DNA of 64,000 nucleotides. It comes from Candidatus Kapaibacterium sp. (GTDB lineage Bacteria; Bacteroidota; Ignavibacteria; OLB7). The first letter of the stretch is position 1. Each line of letters opens with the position of its first letter. The stretch lies in the NCBI GenBank assembly GCA_035539855.1, contig DATLHO010000017.1:13291-77290 (forward strand), written 5' to 3'. The notes beneath the pieces are model-generated. The model had not been told where the DNA came from and did not search any database. It was given only the letters and a program-made list of their open reading frames with translations. This document shows, piece by piece, positions 8,293 through 52,299 of this stretch. The translations under genes and the position numbers were made by a program.

Positions 8293-8330
8293 GGGGAGGG
8301 CTCATCTTCCCACCCCAGTGAGCGCGCCCC

Positions 8331-9016
8331 TGTCATCCCCAGAGGGGATCTTTCTTTGGGTGCGCCTCGCCGCATGTGGCGATAGGGCCACTGCGAATTC
8401 TTCTTTCGCGGCAGCCGCATGCGGCCGCATGCCGCTGCCCTCGCACAACCACACCGACCCACATGCGGTAGTCGCCTCGAAAGAAAGTTCCCCTTCGGGG
8501 ATGACAGAGACGCGCTGTACAGGGTCGAGGCGACGAAGCGCGCATAGCGCGCATCGTCGCCTCGACATCCCGGAAGCTCCCGCCTCTGTCATCCCCAACA
8601 GGGGATCTTTCTTTGGGTGCGCATCACCGTATGTGGCGATAGGGCCAATGCGAATTCTTCTTTCGCGGCAGCCGCATGCGGCTGCCCTCGCACTACCACA
8701 CCGACCCACATGCGGCAGTCGCATCGAAAGAAAGTTCCCCTTCGGGGATGACAGAGAGGCGCTGTTCAAAGTCGAGGCGACGAAGCGCGCCACGCGCGCA
8801 TCGTCGCCTCGACATCCCAGAAGCTCCCGCCCTTGTCATCCCCGGAGGGGATCTTTCTTAGGCTGCGCATCACCGCATGTGGCGAAAGGGCCACAGCGAA
8901 TTCTTCTTTCGCGGCAGCCGCTTGCCGCCGCATGCAGCCGCCCTCGCACTACCACACCGACCCACAAGCGGCAGTCGCACAGTAAGAGAGTTCCCCTTCG
9001 GGGATGACAGAGACGC
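8331..9016. repeat. Three tandem copies (~256, ~247 and ~183 bp) of a highly structured palindromic repeat
   Basis: Copies start at 8331, 8587 and 8834, each with TGTCATCCCC. Each holds a ~175-bp imperfect palindrome running from TGTCATCCCCNNNGGGGATCTTTCTTT to GAAAGAAAGTTCCCCTTCGGGGATGACAGA. The palindrome is centred on GGCAGCCGCATGCGGCTGCC (perfect in copy 2, 8667-8686). Copies 1 and 2 add a ~75-bp linker with a 13-bp-stem hairpin (8524-8566, 8771-8813). Confidence 0.9.
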
Positions 9017-29775: not shown

Positions 29776-30004
29776 AACACAACGGCAGCCGACCGGAACC
29801 GACGAGACAAGCATCGCTGGCATCCCAGCCAACAACAAAAAACAAATAACCAATACCCGTTACCGAACCCCTTCTCCGGGCACGTCAATCCCAACGCTCG
29901 ATCACATACTCCCCCGCCTCACAGGCCTTCGCGAGACTCGCGGCGACCGTGCGCGCGCGCTCGGAGCGCTGCGCTACGACAGCCGCACCGTCGCTGCCGG
30001 CGAC

Positions 30005-32841: not shown

Positions 32842-32868
32842 TCCGCAATCCGAACTTCGAAATCCGAA

Positions 32869-33993
32869 ATGCTCTATTACCTGGCCCAGTATCTCGAATC
32901 AGCGTTCCAGCCGCCGGGGTTCGGACTGTTCCGCTTCGTGACCTTTCGCGCGGCCGGAGCGGCGATCACGGCGCTCATGATCGCGCTGTTCATCGGGCCG
33001 CGGATCATCCTCGCGCTGCGCCGCCGCCACATCGGCGAGCAGGGCAAGCGCGAGGCACCGAAGAGCCACATGGCCAAGGCCGGCACCCCGACGATGGGCG
33101 GCCTGATCGTCCTGCTCTCGCTGATCGTGCCGTCTCTGCTGTGGTGCGACGTCAAGAGCGCGTACGTGATCCTCGCGGTGGTCGTGACGGTGTTCCTCGG
33201 CGGTGTGGGATTTCTCGATGACTACCTCAAGGTCATCCGCAAGCTGCCGAAGGGATTGATCGGACGCTACAAGATCATCGGCCAGCTCGCGATCGGATTC
33301 GTGCTCGGCGGCGTGATCTACTTCTTCCCGGAATGGTTCCCGGGGAATTTCGAGCGGCTGCACACGTACACGACGGTGCCGTTCGTGAAGGACCTCGTGA
33401 TCGACTTCGGATGGATGTACATCCCGATCACCATGTTCGTCGTCACCGCGACCTCGAACGCCGTCAACCTCACCGACGGACTCGACGGACTGGCGATCGG
33501 AACGGTGAGCATCGTCGCGCTGACCCTCGCGGTGATCACGTACATCTCGGGCAACGCGGTCGCGGCGGAGTACCTGAACATCCCGTACCTGCGCGGCGCC
33601 GAAGAGCTCGCAATCTTCTGCGCGGCGCTGGTCGGAGCCGGACTCGGCTTCCTCTGGTACAACTCCTATCCCGCCCAGATCTTCATGGGGGATACAGGCT
33701 CTCTGGCGCTTGGCGGCGCGATCGCGGCAATCATGATCCTCGTCAAGAAGGAGTACATGATCCCGGTCCTCGGCGGTGTCTTCTTCGCCGAGTCGCTCTC
33801 GGTCATGGCGCAGGTCGCATACTTCAAGTACACGCGCAAGCGCTTCGGTGAGGGACGCAGAATCTTCCGACGCGCGCCCCTGCATCATCACTTCGAAGAG
33901 CGGGGATGGCCCGAAGCGAAGATCGTCACGCGGTTCTACATCGTGGCGATTCTGTTGGCGATAGTGGGTGTTGTGACGTTGAAGATCAGATGA
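32869..33993 (+). CDS. mraY: Phospho-N-acetylmuramoyl-pentapeptide transferase
   Basis: KAGTPTMGG, NAVNLTDGLDGLA and MGDTGSLALGG. Confidence 0.95.
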   Translation: MLYYLAQYLESAFQPPGFGLFRFVTFRAAGAAITALMIALFIGPRIILALRRRHIGEQGKREAPKSHMAKAGTPTMGGLIVLLSLIVPSLLWCDVKSAYVILAVVVTVFLGGVGFLDDYLKVIRKLPKGLIGRYKIIGQLAIGFVLGGVIYFFPEWFPGNFERLHTYTTVPFVKDLVIDFGWMYIPITMFVVTATSNAVNLTDGLDGLAIGTVSIVALTLAVITYISGNAVAAEYLNIPYLRGAEELAIFCAALVGAGLGFLWYNSYPAQIFMGDTGSLALGGAIAAIMILVKKEYMIPVLGGVFFAESLSVMAQVAYFKYTRKRFGEGRRIFRRAPLHHHFEERGWPEAKIVTRFYIVAILLAIVGVVTLKIR

Positions 33994-34162
33994 GATGTCA
34001 GCTGTCTGACTTGTCAGATGTCAGATGTCAGATGTTAGATGTCACATACCAGGAAGTGTCTGGTGTCAGATGTCAGATGTTAGATGTCACAAACCAGGAA
34101 AGACCTCCGACTCCATCCGTCTCTTGTATGTGACATCTGACCTCTAACATCTGACCTCTAAC
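33994..34162 (+). repeat. Bipartite inverted heptamer-array element filling the mraY-murD spacer
   Basis: Units in 7-nt register run from 33994 (GATGTCA GCTGTCT GACTTGT CAGATGT x3 TAGATGT CACATAC). The module is repeated at 34067-34094. An inverse array TGACATC TGACCTC TAACATC TGACCTC TAAC lies at 34131-34162 and ends at the murD ATG. Confidence 0.85.
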
Positions 34163-35530
34163 ATGCCTACTCACACCGTTATCGGCTCCGCCCGCTCCGG
34201 CCTCGCGGCCGTGCGGTTGCTGCGTGCCGAGGGTGCGACGGTGTTTGTGAGTGATAGTCGTCCGGCGGTGGATGCTGCTGAGTCGATTGCGGCGCTCGAG
34301 GAGATGGGGGTCGAGTACGAGTTTGGAGGACACACCGACCGGGTGCTCGAGGCGGCGACGATCGTGTTGTCGCCGGGAGTGCCCGACACGATTCCGATCG
34401 TGCGCAAGGCGGTGGAGCGGGGGCTGGCGGTGGTCGGCGAGATCGAGATCGCCGCTGCGCGCTGTCGCGCGCCGATCGTCGCGATCACGGGCACCAACGG
34501 CAAGACGACGACGACCGAGCTCGCCGGGCACATCTTCCGCACCGCCGGCCGACGGACGTTCGTCGCCGGCAACGTCGGACTCGCGTTCAGCGAGATCGCC
34601 GCGGAGGCCGACGAGACGAGCGTCGTCGTGCTCGAGGTCAGTTCGTTCCAGCTCGAGCACATCGTCGAGTTCCGACCGCGCGTCGCGATCGTGACGAACG
34701 TGACGCCGGATCACATGGATCGCTACGCGAGCTTCGAGGCGTACCTCGCGGCGAAGCTCCGAATCGCGGAGAACCAGACGAGCGACGACACGCTCATCGT
34801 CGGCGTCGACAGCGCGCCGTTGCGCGAGGCGCCGTTTGCGGGCGGCGCGCACATGCTCGCCTTCTCACAGCTCGAGGAGGTCGCCAGCGGCGCCTGGCTG
34901 AAGGACGGGACCGTGATGCTCCGGCTGCACCCGACGCTCGAGCCGGTCGCGCTCATCGCGGCCGACGAGATCCGCATCCGCGGACCGCACAATCTCTACA
35001 ACGCGATGGCCGCGTCGCTCGCGGCCGCCGCGATGGGTGTCGAGCCCGAGACGATCGCGCGCTCGCTGCGCGAGTTCCCGGGCGTCGCGCACCGGCTCGA
35101 GCCGGTCGGCGATGTCGACGGCGTCGCCTACGTCAACGACTCGAAGGCGACCAACGTCGACTCGGTCCGCTACGCGCTCGCGAGCTTCGATCGGCCGATC
35201 GTGCTGATCGCCGGCGGCGTCAGCAAGCATGCGCCGTACGACGCGATCCTCGATCTCGTCCGCGAGCGCGTCAAGGCGGTGGTGCTCGTCGGCGAGGCGG
35301 CCGACGAGATGCAGAAGGCCTTCGAGCCGCTCGTGCCGGTGCACCGGGCGGGCATGAGTCTCGAGGACGCGGTGGCGCAGGCCCGCCGGATCGCCGAGCC
35401 CGGCGACGTCGTCCTTCTGTCGCCGGCCTGCGCAAGCTTCGACATGTTCAGGAACTACGAGCACCGCGGCGATCGTTTCCGCGAGCTCGTTCAGTCGATG
35501 GCGACGGCGCCCGCAGGCGCATCGTCATAG
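34163..35530 (+). CDS. murD: UDP-N-acetylmuramoylalanine--D-glutamate ligase
   Basis: ITGTNGKTTTT, DSKATNVDS and Mur ligase domains. Confidence 0.95.
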   Translation: MPTHTVIGSARSGLAAVRLLRAEGATVFVSDSRPAVDAAESIAALEEMGVEYEFGGHTDRVLEAATIVLSPGVPDTIPIVRKAVERGLAVVGEIEIAAARCRAPIVAITGTNGKTTTTELAGHIFRTAGRRTFVAGNVGLAFSEIAAEADETSVVVLEVSSFQLEHIVEFRPRVAIVTNVTPDHMDRYASFEAYLAAKLRIAENQTSDDTLIVGVDSAPLREAPFAGGAHMLAFSQLEEVASGAWLKDGTVMLRLHPTLEPVALIAADEIRIRGPHNLYNAMAASLAAAAMGVEPETIARSLREFPGVAHRLEPVGDVDGVAYVNDSKATNVDSVRYALASFDRPIVLIAGGVSKHAPYDAILDLVRERVKAVVLVGEAADEMQKAFEPLVPVHRAGMSLEDAVAQARRIAEPGDVVLLSPACASFDMFRNYEHRGDRFRELVQSMATAPAGASS

Positions 35531-41767: not shown

Positions 41768-41802
41768 TCCCGAATACGAATGACCTCCGAAGCAACCCGC
41801 AT

Positions 41803-41846
41803 CGTGACATCTGACTTCTGACATCTGACATCTGACATCCGACCCC
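41803..41846 (+). repeat. Heptamer half-array (TGACATC-type units) abutting the ftsA start codon
   Basis: TGACATC TGACTTC TGACATC TGACATC TGACATC CGACCCC in register from 41805, ending 2 nt before the ATG at 41849. Confidence 0.8.
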
Positions 41847-45989: not shown

Positions 45990-48900
45990 ATGGACACACG
46001 CGCACCCAATACGACCACGAACGCCCCCGTTCCCGTGAGGGATTCCGGAGGGCGGGCCACCCGGCTGCCCTTCATCGGACGAGAACAGATGCTCAGGGGC
46101 ATCGCCCGGGCGTACTCGCACACGCACGATGGCGGGCGTATGCTCGTGACGATCGTCGGCGAGCGTGGCAGCGGCCGATCAAGGACGCTGCGCGAGATTC
46201 GCTCGATGACCGAGCTCGCCGGCGCCCTCCTACTGGAGCCCAGACTGCCGGCCGGCTCGAGCGACGTCGTCGCCGCGGTGGCTCGAGCTCTGCGTGAGGA
46301 GCTCGGAGTGCGACGCTCGATCGGACCGCTGAGTCCGGTCGACGCAGCTGACGCAAGTGAGGCTCCGGACGATCTCGCCGCGACCCTCGCGACGACGCTC
46401 ACCGCGACCGCCGCGGTGATGCCGCTGGTGCTGCTCGTCGACGACATCGATGACGACCCCGCCGCGGTCGTTGCGCTCGCCGGCCTCCTGCAATCAGTCG
46501 ACGCTCCCTGGCTCGCGATCATGACGAGCCGCCAGTCGACGGCCTCGGCCGCGGCGATGGTCGCGCGCAGCGCCGATGCGCACACGGCCGAGCTGTATTG
46601 CGAGCACTTCGACCACGAGAGCGTCACCGCGCTTCTGCGCGCGCTGCAGCGCGAGGAGCCCGAAGCACTCGACGTCGGCTGGCTCGTCGAGCGAACGCAC
46701 GGACTGCCGCTGCTGCTGCGCGAGGCGATCGAGGCTGCGATGCGATGCGGAGCGCTCGTTCTCGAAGACGGGCGCCTGCGACGTGCCGACGAGATCGGAC
46801 GCGCCGCCGACGAATACGCCGCACAGCTTCCGTTGTCGGTCCCGGAAATCCTGTCGCTCTCGGAGCCCGAGCGCGCGGCGCTCGCGACGTGCGCGCTGCT
46901 TGGACTGACGGCGCCCGAGGCCCTGCTCGAGCGACTTGCGGTGACCGACACCTGCCTGTCACGCCTCGCTCGACTGCGGCTGGTGCGCCGCGACAACGCG
47001 AGCGTGACGTTCGAGAGTCGCCTGGTGCACGAGGCATCACTCGCCGACGCGCGCGCGCAACGGATCGACGAGCGCCACGCCCCGGTCCTGGCCGAGATCG
47101 TGCCCGGGGCAATCGACGACGGGCTGCGTCCTCCGCCGGGAACGATCGATCTGCTCGTGAGGACGGCTCCGGACGAGGCGCGCCGTCTGGAGCTCATCGG
47201 CGAGCTTCTCGCGTGCGCATCGCGGCTGGCGACGGCGAACGAGTATTATCAGGCGGCCCTGATCATGCGCTCGTGCTACGACGCCGGCGTTGCCATCACC
47301 GACGATCACGACCGGCTCGCCGCATGGTTCGATCAGTATGTCGGCGTGCTGCATGCGCTTGGCAGGGTGGATGAACAGCGTCGCGTGATCGACGACTTCC
47401 TGCGCCGGCATCCGGCCGAGAATGCGACGCCGGCGCTCGTGCCGATGGTCGCGCGCGCGATGCTCTGGCGCGCCGAGGATCTCGAGCGCAGCAAGCTCAT
47501 GCAGCGGGCGATCGAGATGCTCGATGCGGCCGACGTGATCATCGAGCGCGTCGCCGAGCCGGAGCTCGCCGCGTCGCTGAGGCATCGCGCGGTGATGGGC
47601 CGCGCGCGCGTCTACAGCGTGGCCGATCGCAACGACGATGCGCTGGCACTGCTGCGACGGCTTCTCGACGAGATCGACTCCGACGCGCACCTACCGGTCG
47701 CCTTCGACGCGCTGCTGGTCTTCGGTCGCGTTGCCGACACGCCCGAACAGCGCGCCGAGGCCGAGAGCCGCATCGAGGCGATGCTCGACCGCTTCGAGCG
47801 CGATGGACGCGAGCGACTCGCCGTGCAGATGCGCGCGGCCCGCATCGGGCTGCATACCTCCGACGATGACTTCGACCTGCGCGAGCCGGAGATCCGGGAG
47901 ATCGTGGAGCAGACGAAACGCTGCTCGCTGCCGCGCACCGAGACGAACGCCTGGGTCTGGCTTGCGATGATCCACTCCGAGCGCGGCGAGCAGCGCGAAG
48001 CGCTCCGCGCGATCGATCACGCGATCGAAGCGCGCTGGCGTGTCGGCTCGATCGCGCTGTGGCAGCTTGCGATGATCACGCGGGCGCAGATCCTGATGCT
48101 CGATCGACGCGACGACGAGGCGCTCGAAGCGATCGCGCAGGTGGAGCTCGACGCGGAGACGTACGGCCGACCGTGTCGGCGCTTTCTGATCGACGTGGTC
48201 AAGTGCATCATCGCCGTTCGCCGGGGCGAATGGCAGTCTGGCACCGCCGGACTCGCCGTTCTCGCCGAGACAGGCAACGCCGAGCGCTTCGAAGCGGTAC
48301 GCGAGACGATGCTGGTCGTCGAGGGAGAGATCCTTCTGCACTCGCATTCGATCGAGCGTGAACAGGCGCGCGATTACGCACGGCGCGTACTGCTCGAGGA
48401 TCCCCAGGATCTCGACGCGCGCAGGCTGCTGCCGGTCGCTCTGGCGGTCGTTGCGCGCGCGCATGACGACGCGGGCACCGCGGCGCGGGGACGCGTCGGC
48501 GCAAGCGACCCTCTGATACAGGAGCTCGGGCGTCGCGTGACCGAATCCGTCGCGCTCTGGATCGAGCGTCGGGCCGAGGCCAATGCCGAGCATGCGCTGC
48601 ACCTGCTGCGCGCACACGCGCCCCGCGCGCTTCCGGCCGAGGACCTCGCGGCGATCGGAGCGCGGCTGCCTCAGGGTCTCGCCGGTCCATCGTGGCATCA
48701 CTGCGAGGTCCAGACGCTCGGCTCGATGCGCGTGATCGACGCGACCGGCGCGGAACGGGGCGGGCGGCACTTCGGTCAGCACAAGAGCGACTCGAAGCCG
48801 AAGAAGATGCTCGCGGCCCTCGCAGTCGCGGCGATCGTCGGCCGGCGCCTCAAGCGCGAACGGCTCATTGAGATGGTCTGGGGAGAATCGGTCGCGGCCG

Positions 48901-49457
48901 AGACGGCGGTCAACAATTTCCACGTCACGCTTTCCGGCCTGCGTCAGGTCGTCGGCGACGTCGTCGACTTCGACGGCTCGAGCTACATGCTCAACACGAG
49001 CCTCGTGCGCGTCGACGCCTTGTGGATGCTCGCCCTCGTCGACGAAGCGGCCGCCGTTCAGCGCGCCGGGCTCCACTACAAGTCGTACGACCTTCTGCGT
49101 CAGGCAATCGCGCTGGTCAACGGAGAGTTCCTCGACGGCATCTACGACGAATGGACAGATGTCGCGAGGGAGATCGTCCGGGCGAAATCTCGCTTCGCTC
49201 GACTGCGTGTTGCGGAGATCGCCCTGGCGCGCGGCGAGTCCGACGTCGCCCGTCGTGAGATCGGCATGCTGCTCGACGCCGACCCTCTGGACGAGGAGGC
49301 CGAGTATCTGGCCCTCTCGATCCTGCGAGCCGATGGCGAGCGCCTGCGGGCGCTTCGCGAGCTCGACCGCTTCACCGCCGCACTCGCAGCCGAATACGGC
49401 ACCGAGCCCTCGGCGCGATTGCAATCGTTGCGCGGGTCGATTGCCCTGGCCGACTGA
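45990..49457 (+). CDS. Large STAND-type P-loop ATPase with helical repeats and a C-terminal winged-helix + BTAD (SARP-like) DNA-binding module
   Basis: Walker A-like GERGSGRS (46158-46181) and Walker B LVLLVDDIDD. A long alpha-helical middle region. The C-terminus VQTLGSMRV...KKMLAALAV...RERLIEMVWGE then Y..Y..LRQA...G.FL...YDEW resembles OmpR-type wHTH plus BTAD. Confidence 0.75.
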   Translation: MDTRAPNTTTNAPVPVRDSGGRATRLPFIGREQMLRGIARAYSHTHDGGRMLVTIVGERGSGRSRTLREIRSMTELAGALLLEPRLPAGSSDVVAAVARALREELGVRRSIGPLSPVDAADASEAPDDLAATLATTLTATAAVMPLVLLVDDIDDDPAAVVALAGLLQSVDAPWLAIMTSRQSTASAAAMVARSADAHTAELYCEHFDHESVTALLRALQREEPEALDVGWLVERTHGLPLLLREAIEAAMRCGALVLEDGRLRRADEIGRAADEYAAQLPLSVPEILSLSEPERAALATCALLGLTAPEALLERLAVTDTCLSRLARLRLVRRDNASVTFESRLVHEASLADARAQRIDERHAPVLAEIVPGAIDDGLRPPPGTIDLLVRTAPDEARRLELIGELLACASRLATANEYYQAALIMRSCYDAGVAITDDHDRLAAWFDQYVGVLHALGRVDEQRRVIDDFLRRHPAENATPALVPMVARAMLWRAEDLERSKLMQRAIEMLDAADVIIERVAEPELAASLRHRAVMGRARVYSVADRNDDALALLRRLLDEIDSDAHLPVAFDALLVFGRVADTPEQRAEAESRIEAMLDRFERDGRERLAVQMRAARIGLHTSDDDFDLREPEIREIVEQTKRCSLPRTETNAWVWLAMIHSERGEQREALRAIDHAIEARWRVGSIALWQLAMITRAQILMLDRRDDEALEAIAQVELDAETYGRPCRRFLIDVVKCIIAVRRGEWQSGTAGLAVLAETGNAERFEAVRETMLVVEGEILLHSHSIEREQARDYARRVLLEDPQDLDARRLLPVALAVVARAHDDAGTAARGRVGASDPLIQELGRRVTESVALWIERRAEANAEHALHLLRAHAPRALPAEDLAAIGARLPQGLAGPSWHHCEVQTLGSMRVIDATGAERGGRHFGQHKSDSKPKKMLAALAVAAIVGRRLKRERLIEMVWGESVAAETAVNNFHVTLSGLRQVVGDVVDFDGSSYMLNTSLVRVDALWMLALVDEAAAVQRAGLHYKSYDLLRQAIALVNGEFLDGIYDEWTDVAREIVRAKSRFARLRVAEIALARGESDVARREIGMLLDADPLDEEAEYLALSILRADGERLRALRELDRFTAALAAEYGTEPSARLQSLRGSIALAD

Positions 49458-49700: not shown

Positions 49701-50354
49701 CTACTGGTTCGTCGGCTTGACCTCGACGGCGTTGATCTCGACGATCGACACCGGCGTCTTGGGCTGGCCGTTGTAGCGCGGATCGAGCTCGACCCGCTCG
49801 ATACGGTGGATGATGTCCATGCCCTTGGTCACGCGACCGAAGATCGTGTACGAATACGGCAGGTGGCTGGCCCGCTCGTCGCTCAGGACGATGAAGAACT
49901 GGCTCGTGTTCGTGTTCGGTCCGCGGTTGGCCATCGCGAGGATGCCTTCCTTGTAACCGAGCTTCGCAAGCGGGCCTGTCGGATTGAGCTCGTCGGCGAA
50001 CGTGCTGCCGAAGATCGACGTGCCGCCGGTGCCCCAGAGGTCCCGCCGCGACGCGCTGTCGCGCGAAAACGGGTCGCCCGCCTGGACGACGAAGCCTGGG
50101 ACGACGCGATGGAAGAGAATGCCGTTGTAGTACCCCTTCTTCGCCAGTTCGACGAAGTTCTTCACGGTCTTCGGCGCGTCGATGCCGTAGAGCTCGATCT
50201 CGATGTCGCCCATGCTCGTGCGAAGCACGGCCATGTGCGTGGCTTTTGGACCGGTCTGTGTCTCCTGCGCGCGCATCGGCGCGGAGGCTGCGAGCAGGCC
50301 GATCGACGTGAGAACAAGTGCTGAAAGAAGTCGCATGGCTGTCGTATGTGACAT
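49701..50354 (-). CDS. Secreted cyclophilin-type peptidyl-prolyl cis-trans isomerase
   Basis: FHRVVPGFVVQAGDP, MANRGPNTNTSQFFI and a signal peptide. The start could be ATG 50354 or 50336. Confidence 0.9.
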   Translation of the reverse strand: MSHTTAMRLLSALVLTSIGLLAASAPMRAQETQTGPKATHMAVLRTSMGDIEIELYGIDAPKTVKNFVELAKKGYYNGILFHRVVPGFVVQAGDPFSRDSASRRDLWGTGGTSIFGSTFADELNPTGPLAKLGYKEGILAMANRGPNTNTSQFFIVLSDERASHLPYSYTIFGRVTKGMDIIHRIERVELDPRYNGQPKTPVSIVEINAVEVKPTNQ

Positions 50355-50468
50355 CAGGATGTGCCCTCGATAACGTATACGGCGGTATGACACCGCCCCA
50401 CCACCGAAGTTAAACGACGAAGCTCCCGAAACAAACCACATTGAGCGAGGCGCCCAGGTGTTGGGCGA

Positions 50469-51170
50469 TCAGGCGCTCACCTCCTTGACCTTGATCCCGG
50501 TGATGCGCGCGGGCGTTCGCGGCATTTCTCCCTGATATCCCGTCGATTCGATCCTCATGAGCGATTCCTGACCGTCGCGGACGCGGCCGATGATCGTGTA
50601 GAGGTACTGAAGCTGCGCCGCGGCGCCGTCGCCGAGCACGATGAAGAATTGGCTGGAGTTCGTATTGGGACCACTGTTGGCCATCGCCACCATGCCGGTT
50701 GCGTAGCCGAGCTTTGCCGAGGGCTTGGCCGCGTCGAGCTCATCGTCGAACGTGCCGCCGTAGATCGATTCACCGCCCTGCCCCCAGAATTCCCGCTTCG
50801 ACTCGTCCTTCGACTGCGGATCGCCGGCCTGTGCGACGAATCCGGGCACGACGCGATGGAAGGCGATCCCGTCATAGAACCCCTTCTTCGCGAGCCCGAC
50901 GAAGTTGTTGACGGCCTTCGGCGCATCCTTGCCGAAGAGCTCGATGACGACCTCGCCCGAGTCTGTCGCGATCGTCGCGACGTGCGTCACGACGGGACCC
51001 GCCGTGTCCGCGACCTGGACGCTGTCGCCGGAGCCCATCGCTCCGGACGCTCCTGGGGCGAGCGTCGTCGTATCGATGCCACCGGCCGAGGGAGTCTCCG
51101 AGGTGCCGCCGCCGCAGGCGACGAGGATGAAGGCGAGGAGGAGGTAGAGGTGTTGGTATGGGCGGTTCAT
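50469..51170 (-). CDS. Cyclophilin-type peptidyl-prolyl cis-trans isomerase, lipoprotein
   Basis: Lipobox LLAFILVACGG. FHRVVPGFVAQAGDP and MANSGPNTNSSQFFI. Confidence 0.9.
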   Translation of the reverse strand: MNRPYQHLYLLLAFILVACGGGTSETPSAGGIDTTTLAPGASGAMGSGDSVQVADTAGPVVTHVATIATDSGEVVIELFGKDAPKAVNNFVGLAKKGFYDGIAFHRVVPGFVAQAGDPQSKDESKREFWGQGGESIYGGTFDDELDAAKPSAKLGYATGMVAMANSGPNTNSSQFFIVLGDGAAAQLQYLYTIIGRVRDGQESLMRIESTGYQGEMPRTPARITGIKVKEVSA

Positions 51171-51177
51171 GTTGGTT

Positions 51178-51456
51178 TGTCAGATGATAGATGTCAGATG
51201 TTAGATGTCACGAGGCGAAGAGGTTTCGGTGAGCCAGGCCCCCTTCCATGAGCGGCGCCCCGTCATCCTTGACGAGCGGAGCGAGTCGGGGATCTGTCTT
51301 CGGCGGTAGCCGTGCCGAACGGTACCGCTACCGCGGAGGATAGATCTCCGCCGCGCTTCGCTTGCGAAGATGACGGGGGCGCATTCATTCCGGGTAGAGT
51401 GCCTCGTGACATTTGACATCTGACATCTGACATCGAACATCTGACATCTGACATCA
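51178..51456 (-). repeat. Bipartite inverted heptamer-array element filling the uppP-cyclophilin spacer, with a nested palindrome
   Basis: The array at 51407-51455 holds 7 units in perfect register (TGACATT, TGACATC x3, GAACATC, TGACATC x2), and the last unit contains the uppP stop. The inverse array at 51181-51215 holds 4 units plus CACGAGG. Read on the - strand this gives stop-(GATGTCA)n...(ACATCTN)n-CAAACCAAC-ATG. A 122-bp palindrome lies at 51258-51379. Confidence 0.85.
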
Positions 51457-52299
51457 AGCCCCCAACCACCCCACCGCCACCGCAATCAAAATCCCCCCGC
51501 CCAGCAACAGCCGATAGGCGATGAACAGCCGCGTCGAGTGCGTCCGCAGATACCGCAGGAGGAACGCGATCGAGGCATACCCGCTGACTGCGGAGACCGC
51601 CGTGGCGACGACGAGCGTGAGCGTGCCGGCGCCGTCGAGGTGGCCGACGACCTTGAAGAATTCGAGCAGTCCGCTCGCGGCGATTGCGGGGATCGACAGC
51701 AGGAAGCTGAAGCGCGCGGCCGCCTCGCGGGTGAGCCCCGCGAAGAGTCCGGCGGTCAGCGTCGTGCCGGAGCGCGAGGAGCCAGGGATCAGCGCGATCG
51801 CCTGGGCCGCGCCGATGAACACGGCGTCGCGGGGCGTGAGCTGCTCGATCGGTCGGTTGAAGCGGGCGACGCGCTCGGCGATCTCCAGGAGAATCGCCAG
51901 GACGACGAGGCTGGTTCCGATCACGACGAGGTTCTTCGTCAACGCGCCCTCGATGACGTCCTTGAACGCGAGTCCGATGATGACGATGGGGATGGTGCCG
52001 AGCGCGATCATCCAGCCGCTTCGCGATTCGAACGTCTGCTCGCGGACGGGGACGCGACGGAGATTCTCGCGAACGAACGCGCCGACGATGGCGACGATGT
52101 CGCGACTGAAGTAGACCAGCACCGCGACGAGCGTCCCGAGCTGCACGATCGCTATGAACTCCGTCCATCGTTCCGGCCGGGTCGGATCGATCAGGCCCAT
52201 TGCTCGGCCGACGAGCGTCAGATGGGCGGTCGAGCTGATGGGAAGGAACTCGCTCAGACCCTGGATCAGGCCGAGCACGATTGCCTGGACGATCGTCAA
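51454..52299 (-). CDS. uppP: Undecaprenyl-diphosphate phosphatase
   Basis: LGLIQGLSEFLPISSTAHL and the PGSSRSG motif. Eight TM helices. Confidence 0.95.
   Translation of the reverse strand: MTIVQAIVLGLIQGLSEFLPISSTAHLTLVGRAMGLIDPTRPERWTEFIAIVQLGTLVAVLVYFSRDIVAIVGAFVRENLRRVPVREQTFESRSGWMIALGTIPIVIIGLAFKDVIEGALTKNLVVIGTSLVVLAILLEIAERVARFNRPIEQLTPRDAVFIGAAQAIALIPGSSRSGTTLTAGLFAGLTREAAARFSFLLSIPAIAASGLLEFFKVVGHLDGAGTLTLVVATAVSAVSGYASIAFLLRYLRTHSTRLFIAYRLLLGGGILIAVAVGWLGA

Follow-up and report, generated by a model that had tools for sequence, protein, structure and literature searches.

Inverted heptamer arrays enclosing a palindromic repeat between uppP and a cyclophilin gene in a contig of Candidatus Kapaibacterium sp.

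We analyzed a 64,000-nucleotide stretch (hereafter the window; G+C 67.4%) of contig DATLHO010000017.1 from Candidatus Kapaibacterium sp., focusing on the spacer that separates, on the minus strand, the stop codon of uppP from the start codon of a gene encoding a cyclophilin lipoprotein. The spacer consists of two mirrored runs of a 7-base simple repeat flanking an unrelated palindromic repeat (Table 1). An initial annotation made from the sequence had proposed that the uppP stop is embedded in the first of seven phased GATGTCA-type units, and both the minus-strand reading and Tandem Repeats Finder (TRF) bear this out. The bipartite layout that it described (arm, inner motif, core, inverse motif, arm, ATG) likewise matches the sequence, with the inner motif read here as CGAGGC/GCCTCG.

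The units of the 5' arm run GATGTCA, GATGTCA, GATGTTC, GATGTCA, GATGTCA, GATGTCA and AATGTCA, five of them perfect and none separated by an insertion or deletion. At period 7, TRF counts 7.0 copies in this arm (88% matches, 0% indels) and 4.7 copies in the 3' arm (76% matches, 0% indels), so that the reported asymmetry of the arms, with more units after the stop than before the start, is correct. Together, the two arms make up an inverted repeat of 39 nt with 85% complementarity, in which the G-rich arm precedes the C-rich one. The 3' arm is free of ATG, contains stop codons in all three frames and ends 7 nt from the cyclophilin ATG, the intervening bases being AACCAAC; the N-terminus of the cyclophilin carries the lipobox LVAC, as read from its translation. 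The open reading frames (ORFs) 51201..51485(-) and 33906..34133(+), which had been flagged as spurious, both translate arrays as DVRCQM repeats.

The repeat is strongly concentrated within the window. Allowing up to two mismatches, the 14-mer GATGTCAGATGTCA occurs 24 times, compared with 0.38 expected (0/100 shuffles), and all 24 matches are confined to three sites. Scanning of periods from 6 to 12 nt detected strong tandem arrays for period 7 alone; besides these, two short period-5 stretches pass the tandem-array threshold. An A-rich tract at 29834-29855, also flagged by TRF with period 7, is not a real array.

Table 1. Features of the spacer between uppP and the cyclophilin lipoprotein gene, in window coordinates
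Feature	Position	Strand	Basis or remark
uppP	51454-52299	-	Pfam BacA, E = 3.8e-77
uppP stop codon TGA	51456-51454	-	its G and A are bases 1-2 of heptamer unit 1
5' (G-rich) arm, 7 in-phase GATGTCA-type units	51407-51455	-	sequence read, TRF, pattern search
CGAGGC, inner extension of the arm inverted repeat	51401-51406	-	sequence read, inverted-repeat search
Core, 184 nt	51217-51400	-	sequence read
Linker between 5' arm and palindrome, 18 nt, non-repeat, ACTCTACCCGGAATGAAT	51383-51400	-	sequence read
Nested imperfect palindrome, 128 nt, termini CCCCGTCATC...GATGACGGGG, REP/MITE-like (see text)	51255-51382	.	inverted-repeat search, BLAST
Linker between palindrome and 3' arm, 38 nt, non-repeat	51217-51254	-	sequence read
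GCCTCG, pairs with CGAGGC	51211-51216	-	sequence read, inverted-repeat search
3' (C-rich) arm, TGACATC TAACATC TGACATC TATCATC TGACA	51178-51210	-	sequence read, TRF, pattern search
Sigma-70-like match GTGACA-16 nt-TATCAT	51184-51211	-	consensus match only, within 3' arm units
Cyclophilin lipoprotein ATG	51170-51168	-	gene 50469-51170, 233 aa, Pfam Pro_isomerase

The nested palindrome is built from two 63-nt arms (51255-51317 and 51320-51382) that are 71% complementary, and self-BLAST of the core aligns at 77% over 122 nt (51258-51378). Self-BLAST identified no second copy of the palindrome or core within the window, and the possibility that the core represents a family repeated inside it was rejected on this basis; the core also lacked matches in plasmid and phage collections. 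Its termini (~13 nt, CGCCCCCGTCATC...GATGACGGGGCG) are found again at 8325-9016, where they bound three 247-nt units arranged in tandem. The unit is repeated there 2.7 times at 87-89% identity, and each copy consists of an imperfect palindrome of ~190 nt, bounded by CGCCCCTGTCATCC...GGGGATGACAGAG, and then a second hairpin rich in G+C, GTCGAGGCGACGA...TCGTCGCCTCGAC. The initial annotation had assigned the core palindrome to a different repeat family; the palindrome is present and its termini are shared elsewhere, but the assignment to a different family holds for the termini only.

To characterize this terminal type, we scanned metagenomes with the pattern CCCCGTCATC-N85-115-GATGACGGGG and obtained at least 120 loci (L126-L245), which fall into many clusters with unrelated interiors that cannot be aligned. 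The sub-terminal motif GTCATCCTGAGCGAAGCGAAGGATCT is frequent among the listed palindromes, and the window core carries a similar one (GTCATCTTCGCAAGCGAAGCGCGGCGGAGATCT). A putative superfamily with these termini would share the sub-terminal motif GTCATCC..GCGAAGGATCT; part of the match was imposed by the search pattern itself, and conserved bases outside the forced pattern comprise GGATGAC, in 10/10, and AGCGAAG..GGAGATCT in the window core. The listed loci represent widespread palindromic intergenic repeats with termini CCCCGTCATCC and GGATGACGGGG, often with the motif TGAGCGAAGCGAAGGATCT, and are apparently unnamed. The largest cluster among them has 21 members, many from the soil sample series Ga0070685. 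A search of Rfam with 14 loci harboring related palindromes returned no family, and the termini CCCCGTCATC...GATGACGGGG appear under no name in Rfam or the searchable literature. We treat the core as a palindrome resembling repetitive extragenic palindromic (REP) sequences and MITEs (miniature inverted-repeat transposable elements), of a putative terminal type that is unnamed and widespread, with the reservation that the scan pattern accounts for part of the match.

A period-7 array within 150 nt was absent at 114 of the 120 listed palindromes and present at 6, compared with ~1.2 expected from overall density. A specific association between palindromes and heptamers was nevertheless rejected, since both are confined to intergenic DNA, which could alone explain the excess. 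At one of these loci (L165:240-445), a stop codon, (AGAGAGA)n, a CCCCGTCATC palindrome and (TCTCTCT)n succeed one another between convergent genes, in the same architecture as the uppP spacer and with a different heptamer.

Heptamer arrays are also found at three other gene junctions of the window. The mraY-murD spacer (33994-34164) has a G-rich arm, CATAC/GTATG as the inner junction, a core unlike that of the uppP spacer and 4.5 C-rich units that extend to the murD ATG; its RNA folds with -70.5 kcal/mol (z = -3.8). Because this inner junction is CATAC/GTATG, the CACGAGG/CCTCGTG pair is not a feature of the family. Between ftsQ and ftsA (41800-41843), a single TGACATC-type array of six units without a partner arm ends ~9 nt before the ftsA ATG, and the array region folds less well than 198 of 200 shuffles. 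The murF-mraY spacer (32842-32868, 27 nt) consists entirely of heptamers from stop to start, TCCGCAA TCCGAAC TTCGAAA TCCGAAA-TG; read in the register CGAAATC, TCCGAAA matches CGACATC at 6/7 positions. The array ends 2-4 nt from the ATG at murD, against the 7 nt and ~9 nt at the cyclophilin gene and ftsA, and all three arrays read TGACATC in the sense direction; none of these starts has GGAG, GAGG or AGGA. In the two bipartite copies, the apparent match between the orientation of the arms and the direction of transcription turned out to be uninformative. A GATGTCA...TGACATC pair reads identically on both strands, which makes the arrangement of a G-rich arm after the stop and a C-rich arm before the start automatic, and among the heptamer sites of the window ftsQ-ftsA alone is informative about strand.

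Within the G-rich arm of mraY-murD (34012-34100), a 45-nt block made up of heptamers and CA(T/A)ACCAGGAAG is duplicated with 93% identity, indicating that arrays also grow by duplication of larger units.

To trace the history of the spacer, we compared it with its orthologous counterparts in relatives. The closest named relatives of UppP are Kapabacteria and Ignavibacteria proteins (60-68% identity), and the gene order flavin mononucleotide (FMN)-oxidoreductase / uppP / cyclophilin / cyclophilin / AAA-BTAD regulator is kept in relatives. The spacer comparison covers loci L119-L125 and leaves aside the close relatives P0003 (372-nt spacer) and P0005. In L119, UppP is identical, and alignment of 1726 nt with the window shows 4 mismatches and a single gap of 14 nt (99.8% identity); the gap corresponds to exactly two units of the G-rich arm, of which this short-read assembly contig has 5 (L119:1630-1680) and the window 7 (51407-51455). 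Among the remaining loci, four have spacers of 44-95 nt in which neither an array nor a palindrome is present. L123 (85% UppP identity) has a 44-nt spacer with only T-TGACATC-CTGACTC. In L120/L121 (84%), the 158-nt spacer ends in TGACATC TGACATC TGACCGACATCCGAC flush with the ATG, lacks both G-rich array and palindrome, and its RNA in L120 shows no significant structure (z = +1.0). No heptamers are found in the spacers of L122 (79%; 95 nt), L124 (77%; 52 nt) and L125 (76%; 50 nt).

The initial annotation had left open whether the locus is a nested insertion or a modular composite, as opposed to a single element, and had proposed to decide this by comparison with relatives. The comparison shows that arms and core are gained and lost independently. 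The 3' arm is found by itself in L120/L121, with a vestige of it in L123; at mraY-murD and ftsQ-ftsA, arms are present and this core is missing; and palindromes with the same termini occur without arms at the 114 loci mentioned above. These separate histories support the interpretation of the spacer as a composite, not one element, and the element appears to have been assembled recently in an ancestrally short operon junction, as a fast-changing structure and not a conserved device. A single orthologous junction provides a clean, dated series that begins with no array, passes through a seed of one or two units and then an array next to the start codon, and leads to an inverted pair enclosing a palindrome; this series shows the order in which such composites are assembled.

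The L119 contig breaks inside the palindrome, indicating that such repeats fragment short-read assemblies; for annotation, this means that heptamer arrays can be expected both to yield spurious ORFs and to break such assemblies. The two cyclophilin genes 3' of uppP (49701-51170) are tandem paralogs encoding 233 and 246 aa, the first with the lipobox, and in all relatives examined the pair is kept next to the gene, on the other strand, of an AAA_16-BTAD regulator of 1155 aa (45990-49457).

The same comparisons bear on the alternative that the whole 278-bp unit is one mobile element, MITE- or fold-back-like, with terminal inverted repeats made of heptamer sub-repeats. The long terminal inverted repeats (39 nt, 85%) with their internal palindrome, the insertion relative to short ancestral spacers and L165, where arrays directly adjoin a palindrome with termini of this type, speak for such an element. 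Its ends, however, show no target-site duplication (CTT/GATG... and ...CTGA/CAAACC, the slash marking the boundary), there is no second copy in the 64 kb and no match in plasmid or phage collections, the 3' arm stands alone at the orthologous position in L120/L121, the mraY-murD arms enclose a different core, and unit number differs between near-identical strains. We hence regard a single mobile element as very unlikely.

Arrays of this kind extend well beyond the window. (GATGTCA)3 is present in more than 118 stretches of a species-representative genome collection, spanning over ten phyla that include the Acidobacteriota, Bacteroidota, Planctomycetota, Pseudomonadota, Actinomycetota, Patescibacteria and Cyanobacteria, and these arrays are typically flanked by degenerate TGANNTC units, with frequent inverted pairs. 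A cross-phylum family specific to GATGTCA was nonetheless rejected. Using triple repeats of heptamers with the same base composition as controls in viral contigs, we counted 9 de-replicated independent loci for GATGTCA and 3, 28, 10, 7, 0 and 1 for six control heptamers. The controls being about as common, the arrays reflect a general phenomenon of heptamer simple sequence repeats (SSRs) and not a GATGTCA-specific family. Units with a CAG/CTG junction averaged 12.5 independent loci against 2.7 for the others, a difference that is not significant (4 vs 3 patterns). Literature searches for the heptamer dimer and the palindrome terminus strings returned nothing relevant. The spacer arrays belong to the already described intergenic heptamer SSR arrays, in their convergent inverted-pair form.

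The spacer is predicted to be highly structured as RNA. It folds with -157 kcal/mol (z = -10.1), and when 51500-51130 is folded as a whole (-190 kcal/mol), one basal helix pairs the start codon of the cyclophilin gene with the region of the uppP stop codon. The mean unpaired probability of the start region is 0.33 in this fold and ~0.5 when the bases that a ribosome parked at the stop codon would cover are forced open; surplus units of the longer 5' arm then let the 3' arm pair again in a shifted register. Strong translational coupling was rejected, as this modelling opens the start region only modestly. The variant units of the arms (GATGTTC and AATGTCA vs TAACATC and TATCATC) do not compensate each other. 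No canonical terminator was found in the spacer, where the stem is followed by CAAACCAACAUG and no U-tract is present. Rfam yielded 0 matches in the window and likewise no family for the spacer at a permissive E-value, the best sub-threshold hit being to a miRNA hairpin model with 33.7 bits against a threshold of 128.

These folds invite the reading of a dedicated RNA junction element, in which the C-rich arm is the initiation region and the G-rich arm its anti-sequence, with ribosomes that complete uppP melting the stem and so licensing cyclophilin translation (coupling), or RNase III cutting it and thereby separating the cistrons. Several observations are consistent with it: stop and start codons share the basal helix, 67% of the start region being paired in free RNA, the hairpin is very stable and lacks a U-tract terminator, mraY-murD has the same stop-to-start layout, the local cyclophilin leader is unstructured, and the TGACATC reading is biased to start codons across phyla (see below). 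The element is nevertheless absent from five otherwise syntenic relatives, the variant units of the two arms show no covariation, a parked ribosome lifts the unpaired probability just from 0.33 to ~0.5 in the model because the 3' arm re-pairs with spare 5' units, and the agreement in orientation is automatic in strand-symmetric bipartite pairs. A conserved junction function at the RNA level thus becomes unlikely, given the absence of the element from relatives with 76-85% UppP identity, the lack of compensating units and a start that is only partly freed. We consider a dedicated, conserved junction function unlikely and this reading doubtful, although it is the least improbable of the alternatives weighed here. 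An incidental effect of the fold on cyclophilin translation and mRNA processing is, by contrast, likely but unproven.

When the predicted folds of the -35..+15 regions of 36 genes are ranked, the three genes with a TGACATC array ahead of them come out as the least structured (-0.4, -3.3 and -4.6 kcal/mol, compared with a median of -11.6), and these three together with mraY, whose leader carries the related TCCGAAA heptamer (-9.9 kcal/mol), differ from the other genes with p = 0.0026 (Mann-Whitney). In part the low structure is built in, since the repeat lacks self-complementarity and its G+C content is lower. The window is also poor in Shine-Dalgarno (SD) sequences, with an SD 4-mer at 8/37 crude gene starts against a background of 14%.

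A different possibility is that the spacer acts at the DNA level, as an outward promoter driving the cyclophilin gene, as a contingency locus that adjusts promoter spacing through its number of units, or as a cruciform-prone repeat that modulates transcription. The 3' arm contains the sigma-70-like match of Table 1 (10/12, one found vs 0.2 expected), unit number is polymorphic, and heptamer repeats changed the behaviour of the recO promoter in Nostoc reporter assays (bioRxiv 10.1101/2022.06.06.494920). The match was scored with the E. coli consensus, however, which may not apply in a lineage related to Ignavibacteria and Kapabacteria; its -10-like hexamer ends 13 nt before the ATG, implying an almost leaderless mRNA; the polymorphic units lie in the distal arm and not between the hexamers; and arrays elsewhere are often 0-12 nt from the ATG, leaving no room for a promoter. 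Action at the DNA level is, in our assessment, the least probable of the readings considered.

The interpretation that we favor, slippage-driven simple-sequence arrays accreted together with a nested palindrome, has to contend with a set of observations that weigh against it. In a set of 126 arrays from other genomes, a long-ORF start follows within 50 nt of the TGACATC reading 26 times and of the GATGTCA reading 7 times (p = 0.0013), on the basis of crude, ORF-based gene calls; in 14 further, ambiguous arrays the GATGTCA reading is traversed by a long open frame. In the 26 start-proximal cases, the distance is 12 nt or less in 14 and the start is ATG in 21. Within inverted pairs, the G-rich arm comes first 34 times against 2, and 15 against 0 for three other heptamers in viral contigs, which amounts to 49/51 pairs from many phyla and viral contigs (L001-L118 and L246-L313). 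The same order prevails between convergent genes (9 vs 0), and avoidance of upstream AUGs is thus not the whole explanation and was rejected as its sole cause. In addition, all four heptamer junctions of the window (murF-mraY, mraY-murD, ftsQ-ftsA and uppP-cyclophilin) flank cell-envelope genes, a post-hoc observation that could hint at co-regulation, and the unit difference in L119 could represent a collapse of the short-read assembly. Purely neutral slippage does not predict the asymmetries, which point to selection or a directional mechanism and constitute the main evidence against a purely neutral model. No current model explains the precedence of the G-rich arm across phyla; conceivably, Rho would be loaded by an unstructured, C-rich tract if this were the first to appear in the transcript.

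Two further readings draw on these asymmetries. In the first, the arrays are multivalent sites for a heptad-spaced single-strand-binding protein (S1, a cold-shock protein or another) and define a post-transcriptional regulon that includes envelope genes. Arrays at four envelope-gene junctions in 64 kb, the TGANNTC/TCTGA pattern shared by flanking units elsewhere and the precedence of the G-rich arm in 49/51 inverted pairs are compatible with this proposal; TAACTGA repeats have been interpreted in this way before, and heptamers are bound by CspB (PMC4679880). Arrays of control heptamers with the same composition, however, arise about as often, leaving no clear sequence specificity; the arrays are not kept at orthologous junctions, the arm that would be bound lies inside a duplex at 2/3 sites, and no candidate protein was identified. 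Such a regulon seems improbable to us. In the second, arrays of the TGANNTC class would form a cross-phylum, orientation-constrained system of cis-elements, the C-rich array acting as an unstructured, AUG-free ribosome landing pad at starts and the G-rich array, always 5', completing the pair, so as to tune translation at envelope operon junctions (murF-mraY-murD, ftsQ-ftsA and uppP-cyclophilin). The G-rich arm could then be a built-in anti-sequence, or could hide the C-rich tract from Rho or a heptad-binding protein. We judge this system unlikely as well, if somewhat less so than the protein-binding sites.

Weighing these lines of evidence, we favor, at about an even chance of being right, the explanation that slippage-driven simple-sequence arrays and a nested REP/MITE-like palindrome accreted in a short junction, with incidental effects at the RNA level. 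We infer the generating mechanisms (slippage and template switching), as well as all RNA-level effects, and propose the following sequence of events. An ancestral junction between the co-directional uppP and cyclophilin genes would have been short, as in the three relatives with spacers of 44-52 nt. A heptamer seed arising near the start codon would have expanded into the start-proximal TGACATC array, presumably the older part, with arrays lengthening and shortening in 7-nt steps through replication slippage and unit number still changing. The opposite GATGTCA arm may have been added later, perhaps by template-switch or fold-back copying, and the 128-nt palindrome inserted into the loop as an unrelated second kind of repeat.

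Any effects would follow from transcription of the spacer together with the neighboring genes. As the cyclophilin leader, the C-rich arm, AUG-free, with stops in every frame and exceptionally unstructured, would suit SD-poor initiation. The G-rich arm and the palindrome are predicted to fold onto this leader in a hairpin of -157 to -190 kcal/mol that base pairs the uppP stop with the cyclophilin start, and the likely net effect would be a damped or conditional translation of the cyclophilin, together with a barrier in stability or processing that separates the two cistrons.

The separate components of the spacer have counterparts in well-known repeats. REP/BIME, ERIC and Neisseria Correia-type repeats and MITEs are intergenic palindromes with conserved termini and variable interiors that are co-transcribed with flanking genes and can stabilize upstream mRNA, undergo cutting by RNase III or carry outward promoters. 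We liken the nested core, and functionally the hairpin, to these elements by description and not by sequence similarity; unlike MITEs, the spacer element shows no target-site duplication. Eukaryotic fold-back (FB) transposons possess long inverted terminal arms composed of short tandem sub-repeats in variable number. The spacer shares with them inverted arms of variable-number sub-repeats, and differs in its bacterial host and in having no link to a transposase and no evidence of mobility of the unit.

The arrays themselves find their closest parallels among bacterial heptamer repeats. Heptamer SSRs are over-represented in bacteria (PMC4692102), where they constitute in many species the most over-represented long simple repeats, a class of long simple sequence repeats (LSSRs) attributed in that source to Mrazek et al. 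2007. The short tandemly repeated repetitive (STRR) heptanucleotides of cyanobacteria, described three decades ago and cited in the same source for Calothrix PCC 7601, are likewise tandem intergenic heptamers; their units and their phylum differ from those of our arrays, and they are not known to enclose a nested palindrome. The GGGAATC repeats of Xanthomonas and GGGGA(C/T)T repeats of Nostoc (Rehm et al. 2015, PMC4692102) resemble the spacer arrays in their near-perfect head-to-tail 7-nt units in a high-G+C genome, in being almost always intergenic, near the end of the upstream ORF and transcribed with their neighbors, and in their frequent convergent inverted pairs forming stem-loops, with lengths that differ between close relatives. 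Xanthomonas genomes harbor 70-75 such convergent pairs of GGGAATC arrays each, and array lengths vary between species (PMC4692102). The spacer departs from this model in its GATGTCA unit, with which no G-quadruplex is possible, in its host, an uncultured relative of the Kapabacteria/Ignavibacteria, and in a pair that spans exactly from stop to start codon with a palindromic repeat nested in its loop.

The start-proximal arm, in turn, resembles the TAACTGA arrays found a few nucleotides upstream of SD-less starts in the Beggiatoaceae, cyanobacteria and some Bacteroidetes (MacGregor 2015, PMC4679880). Both kinds of array lie a few nucleotides upstream of SD-less start codons in one preferred orientation to the gene, contain stop codons within the repeat and vary between strains by indels in 7-nt steps. 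In the register CATCTGA, the unit shares 5/7 bases with TAACTGA, including CTGA, and is otherwise different. TAACTGA repeats number in the hundreds, whereas the copies described here are known from 64 kb alone, and the BOGUAY genome is reported with one indirect (inverted) set, in contrast to inverted pairs at 2/3 sites in the window. Since, in a genome of 67% G+C, the arm next to the start codon gives rise to the translation start regions with the least predicted structure, the translational hypothesis put forward for TAACTGA-type repeats is directly testable in this system.

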